Source: Escherichia phage arall
Strand: one strand, 5' to 3'
Sequence record: MN850584.1
Length of the DNA: 64,000 nucleotides
Positions within the stretch are counted from its first letter, which is position 1, and each line of letters opens with the position of its first letter. Of the stretch, positions 1-28,926 are shown one piece after another. The translations under genes were made by a program, and so were the position numbers. A model generated the notes under the pieces. The model worked only from the letters and a program-made list of their open reading frames with translations, was not told where the DNA came from and ran no database searches.

Positions 1-89
1 TCGTTGTGTTTAGTGATGATCCAGAAGATTCTTTCCGTATTGTTCTGGAACCAACTATCACCAATGGTGCAACTTTGGCAAGTGTGTTT
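1..89 (+). CDS. 3' end of upstream gene (partial, frame 3; ...VVFSDDPEDSFRIVLEPTITNGATLASVF*)
   Basis: Open frame running into window start, TAA at 87-89, followed by rho-independent terminator at 111-133. Confidence 0.4.
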
Positions 90-110
90 TAAGTAAGCCA
101 GCAAATAAAA

Positions 111-133
111 ACCCGCTTCGGCGGGTTTTCTTG
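111..133 (+). terminator. Rho-independent terminator (ACCCGC-TTCG-GCGGGT + TTTCTT)
   Basis: GC stem with tetraloop followed by T-run; identical copy at 25028-25049. Confidence 0.75.
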
Positions 134-166
134 CATTAATGCCAGATTTAATAAGAGGAGTAGTAG

Positions 167-1360
167 ATGGCAGCACCAAAATCATGGGAACAATATAAAG
201 AAGAGTGTCAACCTATTGCGAATAATAAAGGGATTGAGATCCTAGGATATGTTGAACCGTTTATAGGTTGTGATACGAAAATGATTCTACGCTGTAGGCA
301 GGAACATGAATGGAAGACTTGTAGTATTAGTAATTTCAAGCACGGTAACAGTTGTCCTATCTGTTCTGGTAAGAAGCCGTTAACATGGGAAACAGAATTG
401 CCGATCTTGGAAGAGATAGCACAGAAGAAGGGGTATCAGGTGTTAGGGTACGTTGGAGAATGGAAAGGGAATAAAACAAAACTTGATTTGTTGTGCCATT
501 GTGGGAATAGATGGCAAAGTACAGCAATTCATCAATTTAAAGGCGGTCGAGGTTGTCCACAATGTAGGGGGGAGAATACAAGGAAGGCACTAACAATGTC
601 CGACGATCAACATATTGCAGATTTCTTTTCTACAGGGAAATTTAAGGAAGGCACTATCTTCACTAACACAGGAACACGGAGTAAAGGATGCAGGCATAGT
701 ATCTGGATGGTTGAATGTCCTGTTTGCTCTCATGATGAATATGTTCAAGCAGGTGTTTGTGATGGTAAATTTTACTCTGAAGGAAATAACCTTAAACGAG
801 GGTGCATTCCGTGTCGTTGTGGGAACTATCGGTATACAGAAGACCAGATCACCTATAGGGTAAAAAAGGAAGTAGAAGGGCAAGGGTATGTCTGGGTAGG
901 TTGGATCGGTAAACCGTCTAGAAGTCACGGTAAGTTTAAATATCTTTGTCTTGTGCATGGGGAACAGACAGGGAGGGCTAATAACTTATTAAGCCTCGGT
1001 CAAGGTTGTCCACAGTGTGCTGGTCATAATCAACAGCAATTATATATTAATATTGTTAAAGATAATGATATTATAGTGGCTCTTAAGTTTGGTATAGCTA
1101 AAGATAGTGATAGGCGATTAAATAGTCAAAATAGTTGTAATATGTTTTTTATGGAGCGTATTTGTTTATATGATTTTAGCACAGTGAAACAATGTAAGGC
1201 TGCTGAAAGAGCTATAAAGAAAAAATTAAAAACTGGTATTTTAACGGAAAGAGAGTTGAAAGACGGTTATACAGAAACAGTAAGTGTTTCTGATTTGGAA
1301 AATCTTCAAGAAATTATTACACAACATGGTGGCAAATTAGTATATAATAAGGAGATGTAA
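167..1360 (+). CDS. Cys-rich repeat protein with C-terminal T5orf172/GIY-YIG-like domain (putative homing-endonuclease-like)
   Basis: RBS AGGAG upstream; three ~55-aa modules each ending GCPQC/SCPIC with upstream CxC/CH pairs; C-terminal LYINIV...KFGIAKD...RRL pattern resembles T5orf172/MUG113 fold; motif recall only. Confidence 0.55.
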   Translation: MAAPKSWEQYKEECQPIANNKGIEILGYVEPFIGCDTKMILRCRQEHEWKTCSISNFKHGNSCPICSGKKPLTWETELPILEEIAQKKGYQVLGYVGEWKGNKTKLDLLCHCGNRWQSTAIHQFKGGRGCPQCRGENTRKALTMSDDQHIADFFSTGKFKEGTIFTNTGTRSKGCRHSIWMVECPVCSHDEYVQAGVCDGKFYSEGNNLKRGCIPCRCGNYRYTEDQITYRVKKEVEGQGYVWVGWIGKPSRSHGKFKYLCLVHGEQTGRANNLLSLGQGCPQCAGHNQQQLYINIVKDNDIIVALKFGIAKDSDRRLNSQNSCNMFFMERICLYDFSTVKQCKAAERAIKKKLKTGILTERELKDGYTETVSVSDLENLQEIITQHGGKLVYNKEM

Positions 1361-1912
1361 ATGCGGATTACTGATAAGTATGTGTTCTTCTTTTCGGCAA
1401 AAGATGAATTTAGCAACTGGTATCTATCATCTTTTATTGAACCTTTAGCTCCCAAGTATAATAATTCTATCACAAGTTCTGTCGAATTTACTTGTGTGGA
1501 ACAATATATGATGTGGAGAAAAGCATGTTTGTTTTATGATTACAATATTGCATCTTCTATTTTAACCGGAGATCTAAGATATACAGGAGAAAAAGAACAA
1601 GCATATTATAAGCGACTAGGTAGATTAGTTAAAGATTATGATGAAGACACCTGGACTTCTTTACGGGAGAAGATTGTCAAACGTGGTTTGTATCTTAAAT
1701 ACACACAAAATGAAGATCTCAAAAATAAACTTATTGCTTACGCAGATAAGGAGTTCGTAGAGGCAAGCCCTTATGATTCTATTTATGGTATCAAAATGGG
1801 GATGTGGGATCGGGACGTGGAAAATAAGGATTGTTGGAAAGGACAAAATCTTTTAGGAAAATGGCATACAGACCTTGCTGTTTATCTAAAAACACAATCT
1901 GATATTTCCTGA
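1361..1912 (+). CDS. NADAR (YbiA/DUF1768)-family protein, putative ADP-ribose-processing hydrolase
   Basis: Start overlaps previous stop (TAAATG); N-terminal FFFSAKDEFSNW and internal EQYMMWRKA, ASPYDSIYGIKMG, GQNLLGKWH match NADAR/YbiA conserved blocks. Confidence 0.7.
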   Translation: MRITDKYVFFFSAKDEFSNWYLSSFIEPLAPKYNNSITSSVEFTCVEQYMMWRKACLFYDYNIASSILTGDLRYTGEKEQAYYKRLGRLVKDYDEDTWTSLREKIVKRGLYLKYTQNEDLKNKLIAYADKEFVEASPYDSIYGIKMGMWDRDVENKDCWKGQNLLGKWHTDLAVYLKTQSDIS

Positions 1913-2130
1913 TATTTTGAAAATTTTTATTTTTATAAAAAGGGGTGTGGTTTCATGTACGGAAATCCACCCTCTGAATAATATATCCAGAGTAAATATT
2001 ATTCTGTACTCTGTTAATAAAGTATTTAATTTGTTTGTTGGACTATGGTATCTGATCTTTAAAAGGTATACTATCTCTTAACTACTACTTATAACAGAAC
2101 AGTAAAATCATTTTTATAAAAAGGATAAAA

Positions 2131-2327
2131 TTATTTAAAGTTTTTACAGATTTTTGGATACAAATTTTGAAAATGAAAAGTTCAAGTTTGGTCAAAATTA
2201 TTTAAAGTTTTTGTACGTATTTCTATCCAGATTTTGAAAATGAAAACTTCAATTTTTTAAAAATTCCCCAGTTTATTTAAAGTTTTTTTGCCTTTTTCCG
2301 TAGAAAAATCAAAAATGAAAAGTTCAA
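2131..2327. repeat. Three direct repeats (~55 bp units: TTATTTAAAGTTTTT...TTTTGAAAATGAAAAGTTCAA)
   Basis: Units start at 2131, 2208 and 2273; each ends with TTGAA-N9-TTCAA inverted motif. Confidence 0.8.
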
Positions 2328-2352
2328 TTTCGTGTTTTTATGGGTGTGCGGA

Positions 2353-2409
2353 TGATAATCATTCTCACTAAGAGAATGAGAATCATTAGCAAATGAGAAT
2401 TTTTCTCAT
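2353..2409. promoter_or_regulatory. Cluster of GATAAT/GAGAAT palindromes (TGATAATCATTCTC; GAGAATGAGAATCATT; ATGAGAA-TTT-TTCTCAT)
   Basis: Perfect 7-3-7 inverted repeat at 2393-2409 plus overlapping dyads; same TGATAATCATTCT motif recurs at 12237, 12295, 13148. Confidence 0.6.
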
Positions 2410-2672
2410 TTAGAGAATAACGCGCAGGGGTGGTGTTTGTCTCGCGCTCCCGTGTCCCCTCGCCATACAATAAGAATAGCATAACCAACAACAAAAGCAA
2501 GCGATTATTTTTATCTTTACATTTCTTTACAAATTTATTTTAGACGAGCTACCGGCGATCAACCTTCCAACCAGTGCCCCCTGGTATGTTAGCCCCGCCT
2601 TTACGCCGTGGGGGTGGCGTTTCCTCTTCTGTATGTAAAACAGTATAAGCCCGATCCCTGGGCTTGTCAAGA

Positions 2673-2939
2673 TTATTTTTTGTTTTCTTGCCAGGATAGG
2701 ACACCTAACCAAAAATACATGTCGCCCCGCGCCCCTGGCGGGATCTTGCTTTCCCCGCCGCCACTGCAAGCCCATAGATAACCATTTACGAACGTATCAA
2801 AGTGATCTATCTCTTCCACCTTATGATTGCCCAGGTTGAGAACGGTTTCAACCTTTAAGCCCGTTGCGCTTGCTACCTGGTGCACCGTGCCGCCTTGCCA
2901 GCCCAATGAGTGCATGAGGTGTAAAGTAGTATTTGTCAT
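2673..2939 (-). CDS. Hypothetical protein in GC-rich island
   Basis: 88-aa ORF (MTNTTLHLMHSLGWQGGTVHQV...) with upstream minus-strand promoter-like TTGCTA-17-TATTAT and AAAGGG RBS; local GC clearly higher than flanks. Confidence 0.4.
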   Translation of the reverse strand: MTNTTLHLMHSLGWQGGTVHQVASATGLKVETVLNLGNHKVEEIDHFDTFVNGYLWACSGGGESKIPPGARGDMYFWLGVLSWQENKK

Positions 2940-2985
2940 GGTATCGCCCTTTCTTTGATGTGCGCCCTGGTTGGCGCGGTAGAAA

Positions 2986-3015
2986 GATAATAGCCCTTTC
3001 CTTTATAGATAGCAA
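2986..3015 (-). promoter_or_regulatory. Sigma70-like promoter (TTGCTA-17-TATTAT) for 2673..2939
   Basis: Consensus-like hexamers on minus strand, divergent from + strand promoter at 3056. Confidence 0.4.
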
Positions 3016-3055
3016 GCAAAAAAAAAGAAATGAAAAAAAGATTAAAAAAAAGGGG

Positions 3056-3084
3056 TTGACGTTCCTCACCTGGTAGCGTATTAT
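3056..3084 (+). promoter_or_regulatory. Sigma70-like promoter (TTGACG-17-TATTAT)
   Basis: Hexamers with 17-nt spacer; divergent partner of minus promoter. Confidence 0.45.
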
Positions 3085-3211
3085 TCATCTTGTCGAGGGG
3101 GGCGAGGCACAACGACAATAAACAAAAGGAGGGCGCAATGTAGGACGGGCAAAGGTGAGGATCTCCATAATCCACCGTCACAATAACATTACTTATAAAA
3201 GGTTGATAACG

Positions 3212-3307
3212 ATGATCAAGAAAGAAAACAGCTTGACGGTTGGAACGATTAACGCTATCATTCTAGCCGTTCCATTTTGGGTTGTAGTAGCGGTTATTAT
3301 CTTTTAA
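3212..3307 (+). CDS. Small hydrophobic peptide (31 aa, MIKKENSLTVGTINAIILAVPFWVVVAVIIF)
   Basis: ATG with AAAGG upstream, single predicted TM helix. Confidence 0.3.
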   Translation: MIKKENSLTVGTINAIILAVPFWVVVAVIIF

Positions 3308-3315
3308 AAATATTC

Positions 3316-3371
3316 TTGACAACGTTTTTTAATCTGATAAGATGTATCACATAGGGCGGCAATAGTGCCGC
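3316..3371 (+). promoter_or_regulatory. Early promoter cassette: TTGACA-16-TAAGAT + 5' hairpin GCGGCA-ATAG-TGCCGC
   Basis: Conserved module CAC-ATAGGGCGG-hairpin then AACAGAAGAGA leader and ATG at 3396. Confidence 0.7.
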
Positions 3372-3395
3372 TCATAACAGAAGAGAGAAATAATC

Positions 3396-3668
3396 ATGGC
3401 ATCATATAGCGCATCAATGATCGTAATGGGTATCACTGGTAAACCTATGCGCGGTGGCGGATCTTTCGCTAACATCAATATTGATGGGCGTTTATCCCTG
3501 GATGCAGCGATCACCGTGGCACGGGAAACATTTAAAAAAGAATGTAATTTCAATAAACAAGATTATCTCGGTTTCGCTATTGAAAAAACCGCGCGCTTTG
3601 TTGATTATAAAAGCCCGAAAATGGTTGATACTACACTAAAAGCGCAAGATGTAGCATTTTTGCTTTAA
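3396..3668 (+). CDS. Hypothetical early protein (90 aa)
   Basis: ORF directly downstream of promoter-hairpin cassette with A/G-rich RBS. Confidence 0.6.
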   Translation: MASYSASMIVMGITGKPMRGGGSFANINIDGRLSLDAAITVARETFKKECNFNKQDYLGFAIEKTARFVDYKSPKMVDTTLKAQDVAFLL

Positions 3669-3671
3669 GGC

Positions 3672-3732
3672 TTGACACTGAAAAATAATTTGGTAATATA
3701 TACTACATAGGGCGGGGAAATGGTTTCCCGCC
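3672..3732 (+). promoter_or_regulatory. Early promoter cassette: TTGACA-16-TAATAT + hairpin GCGGGGAAA-TGG-TTTCCCGC
   Basis: Same module as 3316. Confidence 0.7.
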
Positions 3733-3754
3733 AAATCAAAGAAAGGGTAACACA

Positions 3755-4117
3755 ATGAGCAAGCAAATCAATACTATCATGTTAAACCTGGTATCTTTCC
3801 GCGACGACGTGAAAAATCTTCCACGTGATGCAGTGGATGCACGTATCGAAAGCTATCGCTCACAGATCGCAACGCTACCGCTAAAACGTGATCAACATGC
3901 CGCTAATATGATGCTTAATGCTATGCTTAAAAAGATGATTCAATGTGATCTTACCCTGGCTTATGAATATGCTGGCGATCTCTTTGTAACATATAGCAAG
4001 CCCGTACCAGGTATGAGCACAACCGAAGAATTGCATGCCTTAAATCTGCGACAAGATGCATGGGATAACATGCGCCGTGTTATGGTATGGGTAGAAAGCG
4101 GTAAAATTTACGAATAA
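3755..4117 (+). CDS. Hypothetical early protein (120 aa)
   Basis: ORF after cassette, RBS AAGGG. Confidence 0.6.
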   Translation: MSKQINTIMLNLVSFRDDVKNLPRDAVDARIESYRSQIATLPLKRDQHAANMMLNAMLKKMIQCDLTLAYEYAGDLFVTYSKPVPGMSTTEELHALNLRQDAWDNMRRVMVWVESGKIYE

Positions 4118-4123
4118 AAACGG

Positions 4124-4176
4124 TTGACATTGCACTAAAACCTGATAAGCTATCTTAAAGCGGGAATAGTTCCCGC
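4124..4176 (+). promoter_or_regulatory. Early promoter cassette: TTGACA-16-TAAGCT + hairpin GCGGGAA-TAG-TTCCCGC
   Basis: Module variant with compensatory stem. Confidence 0.65.
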
Positions 4177-4195
4177 TTACATAGGATAAAACTTT

Positions 4196-4342
4196 ATGAA
4201 ACAATATGTAATGAGTATTCACACCAAAAACGGCGCTACTGTTACGACTCCGGCACGGTTTGCACTTGTAAACCGTTGCAAGAGACTAAAACGAGAGCTA
4301 AAAAACAACCGTGCAACGGGCTTTAAACGCTGGGGAGGATAA
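4196..4342 (+). CDS. Small basic protein (48 aa)
   Basis: ATG 20 nt after hairpin; stop precedes GGAGG RBS of next ORF. Confidence 0.45.
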   Translation: MKQYVMSIHTKNGATVTTPARFALVNRCKRLKRELKNNRATGFKRWGG

Positions 4343-4344
4343 TC

Positions 4345-4605
4345 TTGTTTTTTCTAAAAGTTTTTGATAATGTGATCGCTTTTGAACATGCTGCAACGTT
4401 CAACCTGGCGAGATACGCTATCAGGTTTAAAGATAATGTTTATCCCCGTGCTGGTGGCGGTTACACTATCTTTAATCATCGTAACGCTCAATTAACGGAT
4501 ATAACGAATCCAGATCCTGGAGTGTATCGCATAGGTTGGCTACCGTCAAAAGACGCGGCAAGCATGTTTAAGGTATGTAAACTACTAACAGAAGAGGCAA
4601 ATTAG
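4345..4605 (+). CDS. Hypothetical protein (86 aa), probable TTG start
   Basis: GGAGGA 6 nt upstream of TTG at 4345; no in-frame ATG near RBS. Confidence 0.5.
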   Translation: MFFLKVFDNVIAFEHAATFNLARYAIRFKDNVYPRAGGGYTIFNHRNAQLTDITNPDPGVYRIGWLPSKDAASMFKVCKLLTEEAN

Positions 4606-4606
4606 C

Positions 4607-5161
4607 ATGGGGCGTGAGTATGTGATCCAGTCCTGGGTAAAGCATGACGCTAATGATCCGCGCATAATACCAGATGACATGATCGATCACATGGTAGGGT
4701 ATAGCGGGGAGCAGATAGGAAATCGAGCGGCAAAGAGCAACGGCAACACAAAGGCGCGATCCGTTCGCCCTGGTTGGCTGGCAAATGGTAACGCTGACAT
4801 TACAAGCGCCGCAGATCCAAGCGATGACGCTAAAAATAATCCCTTATACAGCATTGATCCGGCTTTTAAGGTGTTAGAAGAATATCCCGCTAAATTAGCC
4901 GCACTAGATAAAGCATACGAAGAAAAACGGGTGGCATGGACTGTATACAACACCGCTAAAATGGTGCTAGATGCAAAATTGATTAAAGCCCAGGAGAAGA
5001 TCAATAAACTTGTTACCATAGCGCAAGAGGAAGACCAGGACGACCAGGAGGAAGAGGAAGAAATCATGCCTATCCTGGAAGAGGAAGAGATCCAGCCATA
5101 CATGCCGACGGAAGAGGAAAAAAGACAAGCCTTAAAAAATTACGAAAATTGTATTGTGTAA
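4607..5161 (+). CDS. Hypothetical protein with strongly acidic C-terminal tail (EDQDDQEEEEEIMPILEEEEIQ)
   Basis: Start overlaps previous stop (TAGCATG); 184 aa. Confidence 0.6.
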   Translation: MGREYVIQSWVKHDANDPRIIPDDMIDHMVGYSGEQIGNRAAKSNGNTKARSVRPGWLANGNADITSAADPSDDAKNNPLYSIDPAFKVLEEYPAKLAALDKAYEEKRVAWTVYNTAKMVLDAKLIKAQEKINKLVTIAQEEDQDDQEEEEEIMPILEEEEIQPYMPTEEEKRQALKNYENCIV

Positions 5162-7060: not shown

Positions 7061-7420
7061 ATGAAATCAGTAAAAGCAATTAAAACCTACATTGTGTCGG
7101 CTATTTCTTTTGAAGGTACTACAACAGAAAAAGAAAAGATCACCGAACTGATGCGCCGTTTTAACTCTGAATACTGGTATCCCGATAATCAAAAACGTTA
7201 CAATTATAACGTGATCAAGGCGATAGCCTCATGGTTACAAGGTTTACCGTCAGACATTAACATCGCCTTTGATTATAACGAGATTGATCATTTATTAATT
7301 GAATGGAAGTACATAAAAGAAACAAGCAAAGAAACAACCGTTACCCGTGAGCGGGAAAATTATTGGTTATATATTGCAAGCATGATCGTAATCCTGGCAA
7401 AACAGCATAACGTGGCGTAA
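7061..7420 (+). CDS. Hypothetical early protein (119 aa)
   Basis: ORF after cassette. Confidence 0.6.
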   Translation: MKSVKAIKTYIVSAISFEGTTTEKEKITELMRRFNSEYWYPDNQKRYNYNVIKAIASWLQGLPSDINIAFDYNEIDHLLIEWKYIKETSKETTVTRERENYWLYIASMIVILAKQHNVA

Positions 7421-7435
7421 TTAAGAGGAAGAAAC

Positions 7436-7573
7436 ATGAACGCATCACAGCAGATCGAAAAATTCAACCGCAGCAAGGCGCGTAAAGATTGGAACGAAGA
7501 GATCACCAAAAAAGGCGACAAGCGGAACAAAACAAAGAGAGATCGCAGCACAAAAAGATACTGGAACGAATAA
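7436..7573 (+). CDS. Small lysine/arginine-rich protein (45 aa)
   Basis: AAGAGGAAGAAAC-ATG; ends just before terminator. Confidence 0.45.
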   Translation: MNASQQIEKFNRSKARKDWNEEITKKGDKRNKTKRDRSTKRYWNE

Positions 7574-25792: not shown

Positions 25793-26605
25793 TTACTTAG
25801 TCAAATGATCTTCTATCATTTTTATGAAAGCAGGATTGCTAAAAGCATCTGCTGCCTTTTCTCTGTAAACAAAGACTCCTCTATCTTCGTAAAGAAGAGT
25901 TTCTTCGTAATTAATTCCTGGGTTAACAACAATCATTTTTGTACCCATATTAAGTGCAGGGAATAATTCCCAATTAAAATTGATAACTTGGTTTGAACAT
26001 CCTACTACAACAACCAAATCTTGCATGGTCAAAGTATCAAACAAGTGAGCCATATCTGCATACAAAGGTGCAGCCTCACCAAAAAATACAACATTAGGCT
26101 TCACCCAGTTATAATCATCTATGTTTATACTATTGTAACCAATATCTACCAGTGTTTTGTAATCTCCAGGATGCATACGGTAAACTACTTCAGGAAGATA
26201 CCCGTGCACGTGAATAACAGAATCCCTGTCCACACCTGCTCGCTCTAGTAGATCATCAACGTTTGTTGTCAAGTTTACTACTTGGTTAGGATATTCCTTA
26301 AACCACTTTGCTATTTGAATATGTGCAGCATTAGGTTGTACATCTTTAAGCTCAACACGTCTTTTGTTATAAAATTCGTGTGTTTTGGCATACAAGTCCA
26401 TACCGTTCTCGTCTACACCACCGACCACTGGAAGATCTGGAGATGTTCTCACACGATAACCTGCTTGGAAAGCTCCAATATCGCAGACCTCTTCTAAGTC
26501 ATATTCTTCCCATAAGGCACGACCACTATCTGTGTCTGTTCGGAACGTTCGAATCCCACTGTCTGCACTTAAACCTGCGCCACTAACAAAAATTACTCTT
26601 CGCAT
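25793..26605 (-). CDS. Sir2 (sirtuin)-family protein, Zn-ribbon-less
   Basis: GAGLSADSGIRTFR (sirtuin GAGxSxxSGIPxFR), TTNVDDL (TQNID), HVHG catalytic His, VVFFGE; no Cys4 Zn module; RBS AAGAGGA. Confidence 0.8.
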   Translation of the reverse strand: MRRVIFVSGAGLSADSGIRTFRTDTDSGRALWEEYDLEEVCDIGAFQAGYRVRTSPDLPVVGGVDENGMDLYAKTHEFYNKRRVELKDVQPNAAHIQIAKWFKEYPNQVVNLTTNVDDLLERAGVDRDSVIHVHGYLPEVVYRMHPGDYKTLVDIGYNSINIDDYNWVKPNVVFFGEAAPLYADMAHLFDTLTMQDLVVVVGCSNQVINFNWELFPALNMGTKMIVVNPGINYEETLLYEDRGVFVYREKAADAFSNPAFIKMIEDHLTK

Positions 26606-27814: not shown

Positions 27815-27952
27815 TTACCCCCAATGTATATGGGAAATTAACCAAAAGATAAATTCCCAAAAACACCAACCAAGAAAAGTTAATGGAATTATAAAAGCTA
27901 TCAGAGCAGTCTTCCAGCCTTTCCACAATGTTTCCACTATTCCTCCATACAT
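27815..27952 (-). CDS. Possible small membrane protein (45 aa) filling Dcm-27813 gap
   Basis: Hydrophobic ORF exactly spanning intergenic gap; weak RBS. Confidence 0.3.
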   Translation of the reverse strand: MYGGIVETLWKGWKTALIAFIIPLTFLGWCFWEFIFWLISHIHWG

Positions 27953-28926
27953 TTAAGAATATGTGCAATGACAGGTATAGTCCAACCGTTGCCTAACATC
28001 TTATATGCTTGTGTGTTACTACTCACTTTAAAGTAATCATCTGGAACACCTTGTAAGCGGCAACACTCTTTAACCGTTAACTTTCTGTAATGTACGCCTT
28101 CACTCAATTTTTCAAAGGCATCTAGATATCTTCCAGGTGGAATGTAAGCTAATAGTACGTCTTTCGGCACAGTCGTGAGGCAACGAGTTTTTTCACTGTC
28201 CTGAACTTCCAAACAATGTACCAAACGATCAGTTTTAGATGTACTACGTTTGCCATTCTCATTAATTCTACGCCCATATATTGCTGCCGGATAAAAAACC
28301 AGTTGTCTGCGACTCTTTTCAAAATACTGTTCTATATTACCACCTTTGGCATAATTTGCATCTATGCAATAAGCCTTATCTCTGTCTACAATACTATCAT
28401 CTTCAATAATATCTTGCAACACTTCATTGGTAATCTCCCAGGGTTTTATTTCCCAGTTGCACCAGTATAAACGTTGTCTATTCTGTGCCGTGAAATCTGC
28501 GGAGTTAATGAATACGGGATCAACACCTAAGTAACTTGTGATCACGTTTTCCCACTCCACTTTCATCTTAACGTTTTCAAGCATGAACTTAACATTAGGA
28601 TTAAACTTTTTAATATGTTCAAGAATTTCAACATATTCGAAGAATAGCTTAGATCGCGGATCTTGAAAGTTCAAACCCTTACCAGAAGAAGAGAAGCCTT
28701 GACACGGACTACCACCTAACAAAAGATCAATTTCTCCCCACGGGATATCCCATTCTCTCCATTTTGTAACATCACCTAACTGAATAATATCTGGAAAATT
28801 TGCTTGGCTTTCAGCTATGGCAAATTTGTCTAATTCTGAAGCATAATATGTATCTACTTCAATACCTGCACTTTTTAGCGCAAGCATTCCTCCTGACATA
28901 CCATCAAAAAGACTTAAAACTTTCAT
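27937..28926 (-). CDS. DNA (cytosine-5)-methyltransferase
   Basis: Motif I LFDGMSGG, motif IV GSPCQGFS, motif VI ENV, C-terminal NGWTIPV-like block. Confidence 0.85.
   Translation of the reverse strand: MKVLSLFDGMSGGMLALKSAGIEVDTYYASELDKFAIAESQANFPDIIQLGDVTKWREWDIPWGEIDLLLGGSPCQGFSSSGKGLNFQDPRSKLFFEYVEILEHIKKFNPNVKFMLENVKMKVEWENVITSYLGVDPVFINSADFTAQNRQRLYWCNWEIKPWEITNEVLQDIIEDDSIVDRDKAYCIDANYAKGGNIEQYFEKSRRQLVFYPAAIYGRRINENGKRSTSKTDRLVHCLEVQDSEKTRCLTTVPKDVLLAYIPPGRYLDAFEKLSEGVHYRKLTVKECCRLQGVPDDYFKVSSNTQAYKMLGNGWTIPVIAHILKCMEE

Follow-up and report, generated by a model that had tools for sequence, protein, structure and literature searches.

A stand-alone NADAR-family protein of Escherichia phage arall and its predicted role against the DarTG1 defence system

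The NADAR gene

The window analysed here is a 64,000-nucleotide stretch of the genome of Escherichia phage arall (sequence record MN850584.1), numbered from its first letter, and the gene of interest is an intact open reading frame (ORF) of the NADAR family close to its start. The coding sequence occupies 1361..1912 on the plus strand, from an ATG at 1361 to a TGA at 1910-1912, and encodes 183 residues. It is flanked by a putative endonuclease gene on one side and by non-coding DNA on the other; neither an ADP-ribosyltransferase (ART) gene nor darT is a neighbour, and a hidden Markov model (HMM) built from an alignment of its homologues finds exactly one NADAR in the whole window. We consider it highly likely that the gene is the Justusliebigvirus orthologue of AdfN^Bas60 (anti-DarT factor NADAR), that is, a stand-alone NADAR-fold ADP-ribosylglycohydrolase that is made in infection and counters DarTG1. 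The assignment draws on the ORF, its Pfam match, its identity to the protein of phage Bas60, an AlphaFold2 model and the match to the crystal structure 8BAU.

A Shine-Dalgarno sequence (AAGGAG, plus strand, 1349..1354) can be read 6 nt before the NADAR ATG, within the 3' end of the upstream ORF, and the TAA stop of that ORF (1358-1360) directly adjoins the ATG. As far as the sequence can tell, this layout suggests that the endonuclease and NADAR genes are co-transcribed and translationally coupled.

Family, fold and active site

By profile, fold and active-site residues, the phage protein is a member of the NADAR family. The Pfam NADAR profile PF08719 (gathering cut-off 35.1 bits) is matched with an E-value of 2.5e-36 and 125.8 bits, residues 13-168 covering positions 9-154 of the 163 in the profile. 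The match falls in exactly the ORF (1361-1912) in which the sequence-only reading, an earlier annotation made from the letters and translated ORFs, had noted conserved NADAR/YbiA blocks; these blocks are real, as the residue conservation given below also indicates. The NCBIfam model TIGR02464, which describes an N-glycosidase of riboflavin intermediates, is matched at 109.8 bits (cut-off 73.7), and the best PHROG match is phrog_1017, labelled 'unknown function' (E=4.4e-50). Among solved structures, the closest relative by sequence is the NADAR of Phytophthora nicotianae (PnNADAR; PDB code 8BAU, crystallized with ADP-ribose), with an E-value of 9.5e-13, whereas YbiA of E. coli (PDB code 2B3W) was only marginal in the same PDB sequence search (E=0.033).

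An alignment of 46 homologues sharing 35-62% identity with the query was used as input for an AlphaFold2 model, which has a mean predicted local distance difference test score (pLDDT) of 97 and a predicted template modelling score (pTM) of 0.91. The model shows the YbiA-like arrangement of core helices flanked by small beta-sheets. A Foldseek comparison with the PDB returned 8BAU, with a template modelling score (TM) of 0.77 and 28% sequence identity, and 2B3W, with a TM of 0.70, as the sole significant matches; all others had E>3.

According to Schuller et al. 2023 (PMC11543638), the distal ribose of the ligand in PnNADAR is flanked by E43 and E125, and the diphosphate is coordinated by K50, K75 and R79. 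Alignment to 8BAU places E47, K54, K84, R88 and E134 of the phage protein at the positions of E43, K50, K75, R79 and E125, respectively, the numbering of the 8BAU chain being taken as that of the paper plus 2, an inferred offset with which all five residues match in amino acid type. E47, K54, K84 and E134 are invariant among the 46 homologues, and R88 is conserved in at least 90% of them. In the NADAR of E. coli C7, mutants of E88, K95 and D171, the equivalents of PnNADAR E43, K50 and E125, lose the ability to rescue cells from DarT1 (PMC11543638). By analogy with these proteins, E47, K54, K84, R88 and E134 are the predicted active-site and ADP-ribose-binding residues of the phage NADAR.

The last-strand residue distinguishes the clades of the superfamily: it is Glu in YbiA and the 'NADAR' group, Asp in the DarT1-linked antitoxins (DarG1) and His in T4 gp30.3 (PMC11543638, PMC11125620). 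The phage protein has Glu at this position (E134).

Identity with AdfN^Bas60

The protein is identical to bas60_0111 of phage Bas60 (QXV83846.1) at 182 of 183 residues, the sole change being N62 here and S62 in Bas60, and to bas62_0106 of phage Bas62 (QXV81452.1) at 181 of 183. At the nucleotide level, 12 synonymous differences and one non-synonymous difference separate the gene from that of Bas60. The N62S position falls outside the mapped active-site residues, and the Bas60 and Bas62 copies occupy the same genomic position as the gene in the window.

A NADAR search of the BASEL collection showed that Bas60, Bas61 and Bas62 encode one distinct NADAR, named AdfN^Bas60, which groups with bacterial NADARs that are neither DarT-associated nor YbiA (Johannesman et al., Nat Commun 2025, PMC11825919). 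Expressed from a plasmid, AdfN^Bas60 neutralizes the toxicity of DarT1 in uninfected E. coli and returns RB69, T5 and Bas25 to full plaquing titre on DarTG1 cells, whereas T5 is not rescued on DarTG2 (PMC11825919). The upstream endonuclease is not needed for this published activity. AdfN^Bas60 is very probably bas60_0111, going by the sequence records: this is the only NADAR annotated in the examined stretches of the Bas60, Bas61 and Bas62 genomes, and the HMM finds one NADAR per related locus, as it does in the 64-kb window. A preprint on HIDEN-SEQ concerns only adfN and adfM of T4.

AdfN^Bas60 and the window protein have the same length, come from the same genus, Justusliebigvirus, and follow the same pair of genes, for an FtsH-like ATPase and a CapR/T5orf172 endonuclease; the endonuclease upstream of AdfN^Bas60 differs in having one more CapR repeat. 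Bas60, Bas61 and Bas62 are placed in Vequintavirinae by Johannesman et al. (PMC11825919) but in Stephanstirmvirinae in the GenBank records. Given near-identity, the same locus and the same genus, the published neutralization of DarT1 and the DarTG1-specific rescue should therefore transfer to the window protein. The sequence-only reading had proposed a counter-defence gene against ADP-ribosylating systems, and the rescue from DarTG1 by this one-residue variant supports the proposal; what was offered there as a plausible new hypothesis had already been published in 2025.

Comparison with other NADAR groups

PnNADAR is considered here together with the clade of stand-alone NADARs that are neither of the DarT nor of the YbiA type. 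All five of its ADP-ribose contact residues are shared by the phage protein, and in both proteins the NADAR domain stands by itself and lacks an N-terminal extension. The phage protein carries small insertions around residues 27-35 and 74-76 relative to PnNADAR. PnNADAR is a eukaryotic (oomycete) protein, whereas the phage protein, through AdfN^Bas60, belongs to a demonstrated anti-defence context.

YbiA shares with the phage protein its fold, the Glu-type signature and a score above the TIGR02464 cut-off. These likenesses bear on a metabolic alternative, in which the protein would hydrolyse reactive early riboflavin intermediates or another small-molecule N-glycoside, as YbiA and its plant homologues do, and the gene would be an auxiliary metabolic gene. 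Orthologues are annotated 'putative YbiA-like N-glycosidase' or 'GTP cyclohydrolase II', which also fits such a role. However, the direct sequence similarity to YbiA is marginal next to that to PnNADAR, no riboflavin genes lie nearby (the neighbours are the endonuclease gene and a non-coding repeat region), and AdfN^Bas60 falls in a non-YbiA clade and has anti-DarT1 activity (PMC11825919). RibA-fused NADAR homologues are the most likely origin of the 'GTP cyclohydrolase II' labels, and TIGR02464, a domain-level 'equivalog_domain' model, evidently captures non-YbiA NADARs too. YbiA moreover does not rescue cells from DarT1 (PMC11125620), whereas AdfN^Bas60 does (PMC11825919). A metabolic function is, on this evidence, highly improbable.

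DarG1 (the BC4488 subfamily, with members in E. coli C7 and G. lovleyi) belongs to the same superfamily and shares the chemistry, hydrolysis of N2-guanine ADP-ribose on DNA, and the logic of a type-IV antitoxin. AdfN^Bas60 can take its place in neutralizing DarT1 (PMC11825919). The catalytic residue of DarG1 is an Asp (D171 in E. coli C7), whereas that of the phage protein is predicted to be a Glu (E134). An assignment as a DarG1-type antitoxin was rejected on account of this Glu, the lack of the N-terminal extension of the YbiA fold that DarG1 has (the NADAR domain starts at residue 13 of 183) and the lack of a neighbouring darT.

T4 gp30.3, or AdfN^T4 (PF08010, Phage_30_3), is also an anti-DarTG1 enzyme of the NADAR superfamily encoded by a phage, with the same counter-defence role. 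Pairwise similarity between the window protein and gp30.3 was undetectable by BLASTP (E=2.2). T4 gp30.3 matches PF08010 (237.5 bits) and not PF08719, the window protein has no PF08010 match at E up to 1, and the HMM of its homologues has no match in the T4 locus, gp30.3 included. T4-type NADARs have His at the distinguishing position and need the context of T-even infection for full activity, whereas AdfN^Bas60 works alone (PMC11825919). A relationship to gp30.3 was rejected on the BLASTP, PF08010 and HMM results and the presence of Glu rather than His. This separation in sequence is in line with published work, in which phages are held to have gained NADARs on several occasions.

With PADLOC, the window protein matched only PDC-M42C, a model of a candidate system (117.5 bits), and its match to the NCBIfam model DS32_2, 'NADAR family anti-phage protein', was weak (26 bits; cut-off 240). 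These matches reflect that NADARs occur in candidate defence systems too, and are no evidence that the phage gene is a defence gene.

Conservation among phages

Positions 1-4200 of the window match 147 phage records, the best being Escherichia phage Eryne with 98.1% identity over the full length. Many records of Justusliebigvirus, a genus of phi92-like E. coli myoviruses in the Stephanstirmvirinae, follow at about 94%, including the BASEL phages JohannJBalmer (locus tags bas62_), EmilieFrey and PaulScherrer (locus tags bas60_). That the gene is phage-encoded, as the sequence-only reading had it, is borne out by these matches, since Eryne (98%), Bas60 and Bas62 (both 94%) are all Justusliebigvirus.

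A tblastn search recovered relatives of the NADAR protein in 724 phage records. Fifty-five of these, from Justusliebigvirus, are at least 95% identical, and a group at about 57-59% identity comes from Phapecoctavirus-type phages. Below 60% identity stand 666 of the 724 records, for the most part from large myoviruses that infect Staphylococcus (233), Listeria, Bacillus, Enterococcus, Klebsiella and other hosts.

The order ATPase, CapR/T5orf172 endonuclease, NADAR and long non-coding repeat region is common to the examined Justusliebigvirus loci. Phapecoctavirus 3A1 has the same order with two extra small ORFs, its NADAR being 57% identical. The ratio of non-synonymous to synonymous substitution rates (dN/dS) among six Justusliebigvirus copies of the NADAR gene is 0.02-0.16. 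Synteny and low dN/dS together indicate that the NADAR is a conserved, selected component of the phage subfamily and not a recent insertion.

In ESCO8, a close relative, positions 1-4200 (4.2 kb) are matched across a longer stretch of about 6.5 kb. Downstream of its NADAR gene, at a distance of a few kb, this phage has a gene annotated 'phosphoribosylpyrophosphate synthetase' (7286-7468 of the examined locus); the name was not seen in the corresponding Bas62 annotation.

The upstream endonuclease

The gene upstream of the NADAR gene (167..1360, plus strand) encodes a putative endonuclease of 397 residues, in which four tandem CapR zinc-ribbon repeats are combined with a T5orf172 domain at the C terminus, assigned from Pfam, phrog_681 and its orthologues. 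The CapR profile accounts for 131.7 bits over four stretches, T5orf172 scores 22.1 bits against a cut-off of 20, and the match to phrog_681 ('endonuclease') has an E-value of 4.3e-84. Orthologues occur at the same position in Bas62 (82% identity), Bas60 (79%) and Phapecoctavirus 3A1 (37%). The copies differ mainly in the number of CapR repeats, with extra repeats in Bas60 and Phapecoctavirus 3A1.

The endonuclease gene is probably in one transcription unit with the NADAR gene. Further upstream, 3' of the gene for the FtsH-like ATPase, a hairpin resembling an intrinsic terminator (CCCGC-TTCG-GCGGG followed by TTTTCTT; 112..132, plus strand) can be read, which suggests that the two genes may form a short unit of their own. 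The hairpin was not listed by a consensus scan, probably on account of flanking A/T pairs that extend the stem into the T tract.

The adjacency of the two genes raises the question of a mobile cassette, in which the NADAR gene would be cargo of a CapR/T5orf172 endonuclease homing unit and its presence would reflect mobility rather than selection. Several features point in this direction. The endonuclease stop and the NADAR start adjoin each other, the guanine-plus-cytosine (GC) fraction of the 3' part of the endonuclease gene and of the NADAR gene is 0.28-0.35, compared with about 0.40 in most of the surrounding coding sequence, and the NADAR of Vequintavirinae adjoins an endonuclease of a different, HNH type. 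On the other hand, both genes are orthologous and syntenic in Justusliebigvirus and Phapecoctavirus, where identities of 37% (endonuclease) and 57% (NADAR) fit vertical descent; purifying selection on the NADAR is strong, no nuclease gene lies beside the homologue in a Staphylococcus phage, and these large phages carry so many homing endonuclease genes that such a pairing can arise by chance. Carriage as homing cargo is therefore regarded as improbable, and the adjacency of the two genes is probably incidental. The homing-endonuclease-like neighbour seen in the sequence-only reading is thus real, but it is not evidently a recent homing insertion, and the adjacency adds little to the counter-defence argument because the endonuclease is a positionally conserved orthologue in two genera.

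In Vequintavirinae (Mydovirus and Seunavirus), a 41-44% identical NADAR lies just upstream of the HNH endonuclease, which is followed by an exonuclease; examples are Klebsiella phage NDO71 (3001-3946 of the examined locus) and Salmonella phage KE22 (3001-3947). This pair constitutes a second, independent adjacency of a NADAR and an endonuclease gene.

The downstream region and other features of the window

Downstream of the NADAR gene lies a gap of about 1.4 kb (1913-3390) that is mostly non-coding. It contains an AT-rich unit of 63 nt (about 24% GC) in three directly repeated copies (2127-2189, 2194-2256 and 2269-2331), a 15-nt motif, ATTTTTATAAAAAGG, at 1929 and 2110, and short palindromes at about 2350-2420, such as AAATGAGAATTTTTCTCATTT. 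These are followed by an abrupt GC-rich stretch (about 51%; 2550-3000), inside which an 88-residue ORF without a Pfam match is found on the minus strand (2673..2939). Phage alia, a relative, has part of the gap annotated as 'repeat_region', and Phapecoctavirus retains a gap of a similar kind. Neither an Rfam scan of the complete window, run at gathering thresholds, nor one of the 1.5-kb gap, allowing E-values up to 1, gave anything usable; the single match, of 17 bits, was at chance level, and no RNA element from these scans explains the repeats. A tRNA scan of the window found none. The region could be a replication origin, a promoter cluster or a regulatory region.

No gene related to ADP-ribose or NAD is adjacent to the NADAR gene, the SIR2-family gene of the window being 24 kb away. 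Its product has 270 residues (25793-26605, minus strand; PF02146, E=1.3e-22) and carries the label 'sirtuin family protein' in Bas62; it gives the phage a second enzyme that uses NAD+, with protein deacylase, ADP-ribosyltransferase and NADase as candidate roles. A C-5 cytosine DNA methyltransferase of 329 residues is encoded at 27937-28926 on the minus strand (PF00145, E=1.1e-43). The Bas62 annotation shows no methyltransferase product name at the matching position, which may point to a variable gene for anti-restriction in this isolate.

Proposed function

DarT1 is an NAD+-dependent enzyme that ADP-ribosylates the N2 of guanine in single-stranded DNA (PMC11543638). In a host carrying the DarTG1 toxin-antitoxin defence, infection would free DarT1, which would attach ADP-ribose to guanine N2 of single-stranded, replicating phage DNA and so block replication. 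The phage NADAR would bind the ADP-ribose, with K54, K84 and R88 on the diphosphate and E47 and E134 beside the distal ribose, and would hydrolyse the N-glycosidic bond between ribose and guanine, leaving unmodified DNA on which replication could resume. It would in this way act as an orphan type-IV antitoxin, whose target is the product of the toxin and not the toxin itself. Because it would act on the guanine-ADP-ribose product, no help is expected against thymine ADP-ribosylation by DarT2. The residue-level steps are modelled on the structures and mutants of PnNADAR and E. coli C7 DarG1, and the predicted ADP-ribosyl-guanine glycohydrolase activity on the in-cell activity published for the one-residue variant AdfN^Bas60. 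We infer that the gene is expressed during infection and that its main role in its own phage is against DarT1.

Several points weigh against this interpretation. The published tests used the S62 form rather than the N62 form of the window, and the equation of AdfN^Bas60 with bas60_0111 is very probable rather than certain. The available text of Johannesman et al. describes ectopic expression only, with no in vitro assay of AdfN^Bas60 and no deletion in Bas60, Bas61, Bas62 or a relative, such that the necessity of the gene to the native phage on DarTG1 hosts is unproven there (PMC11825919). E134 gives the protein the Glu-type 'NADAR/YbiA' signature, not the Asp of the DarT1-linked antitoxins, and the riboflavin-intermediate N-glycosidase model is passed as well; therefore, DarT1 products may not be its only or original substrate. 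YbiA, which is of the Glu type, hydrolyses ADP-ribosylated guanine in vitro without rescuing cells from DarT1 (PMC11125620), and membership in the NADAR family alone is therefore no predictor of antitoxin activity. The anti-DarT1 prediction is made because the window protein is near-identical to the tested AdfN^Bas60.

An extension of the anti-DarT1 interpretation is that the enzyme is a broad-spectrum nucleic-acid de-ADP-ribosylase, acting on guanine and cytosine in both DNA and RNA, for which DarT1 would be one source of marks among several, the others being YarT-like, pierisin/ScARP-like or other host ARTs. Cytidine, in both DNA and RNA, is also freed of ADP-ribose by Glu-type NADAR and YbiA members but not by DarG1 or the T4 NADAR (PMC12945103), and the window protein belongs to the Glu-type clade, is much closer in sequence to PnNADAR than to YbiA and shows no similarity to T4 gp30.3. 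Hundreds of phages that infect Gram-positive bacteria carry NADARs of 35-45% identity (Staphylococcus, 233 records; Listeria, 54; Bacillus, 50; Enterococcus, 47), and Johannesman et al. suggest that the enzyme is indifferent to which toxin made the mark (PMC11825919). However, none of the known anti-phage systems of E. coli is an ART that acts on cytosine or on guanine in RNA, and the only phenotype shown is against DarT1, with no assay on ADP-ribosylated cytosine or RNA reported for the protein in the available portions of the literature consulted. Such a breadth of substrates is possible, and we hold it only tentatively. It seems rather doubtful that the protein is a generalist protecting Stephanstirmvirinae and phages of Gram-positive hosts against further nucleic-acid ADP-ribosylating defences, with DarTG1 as the first known target.

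Annotation and significance

For this protein with a single residue changed, family, fold, enzymatic logic and anti-DarTG1 phenotype were all published in 2025. Annotations of orthologues and homologues vary: the BASEL records name the gene 'putative YbiA-like N-glycosidase', the Eryne record (4361-4912 of the examined locus) has 'DNA methyltransferase', and other labels include 'putative NADAR family protein', 'N-glycosidase', 'GTP cyclohydrolase II' and 'hypothetical protein'. This mis-annotation is systematic in GenBank, and the 'GTP cyclohydrolase II' label was probably propagated from RibA-fused NADARs. The proper name for the orthologues is AdfN, or NADAR-family DNA ADP-ribosylglycohydrolase. 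For host-range prediction and the design of phage therapy, Justusliebigvirus and Phapecoctavirus phages would be expected to be insensitive to DarTG1.

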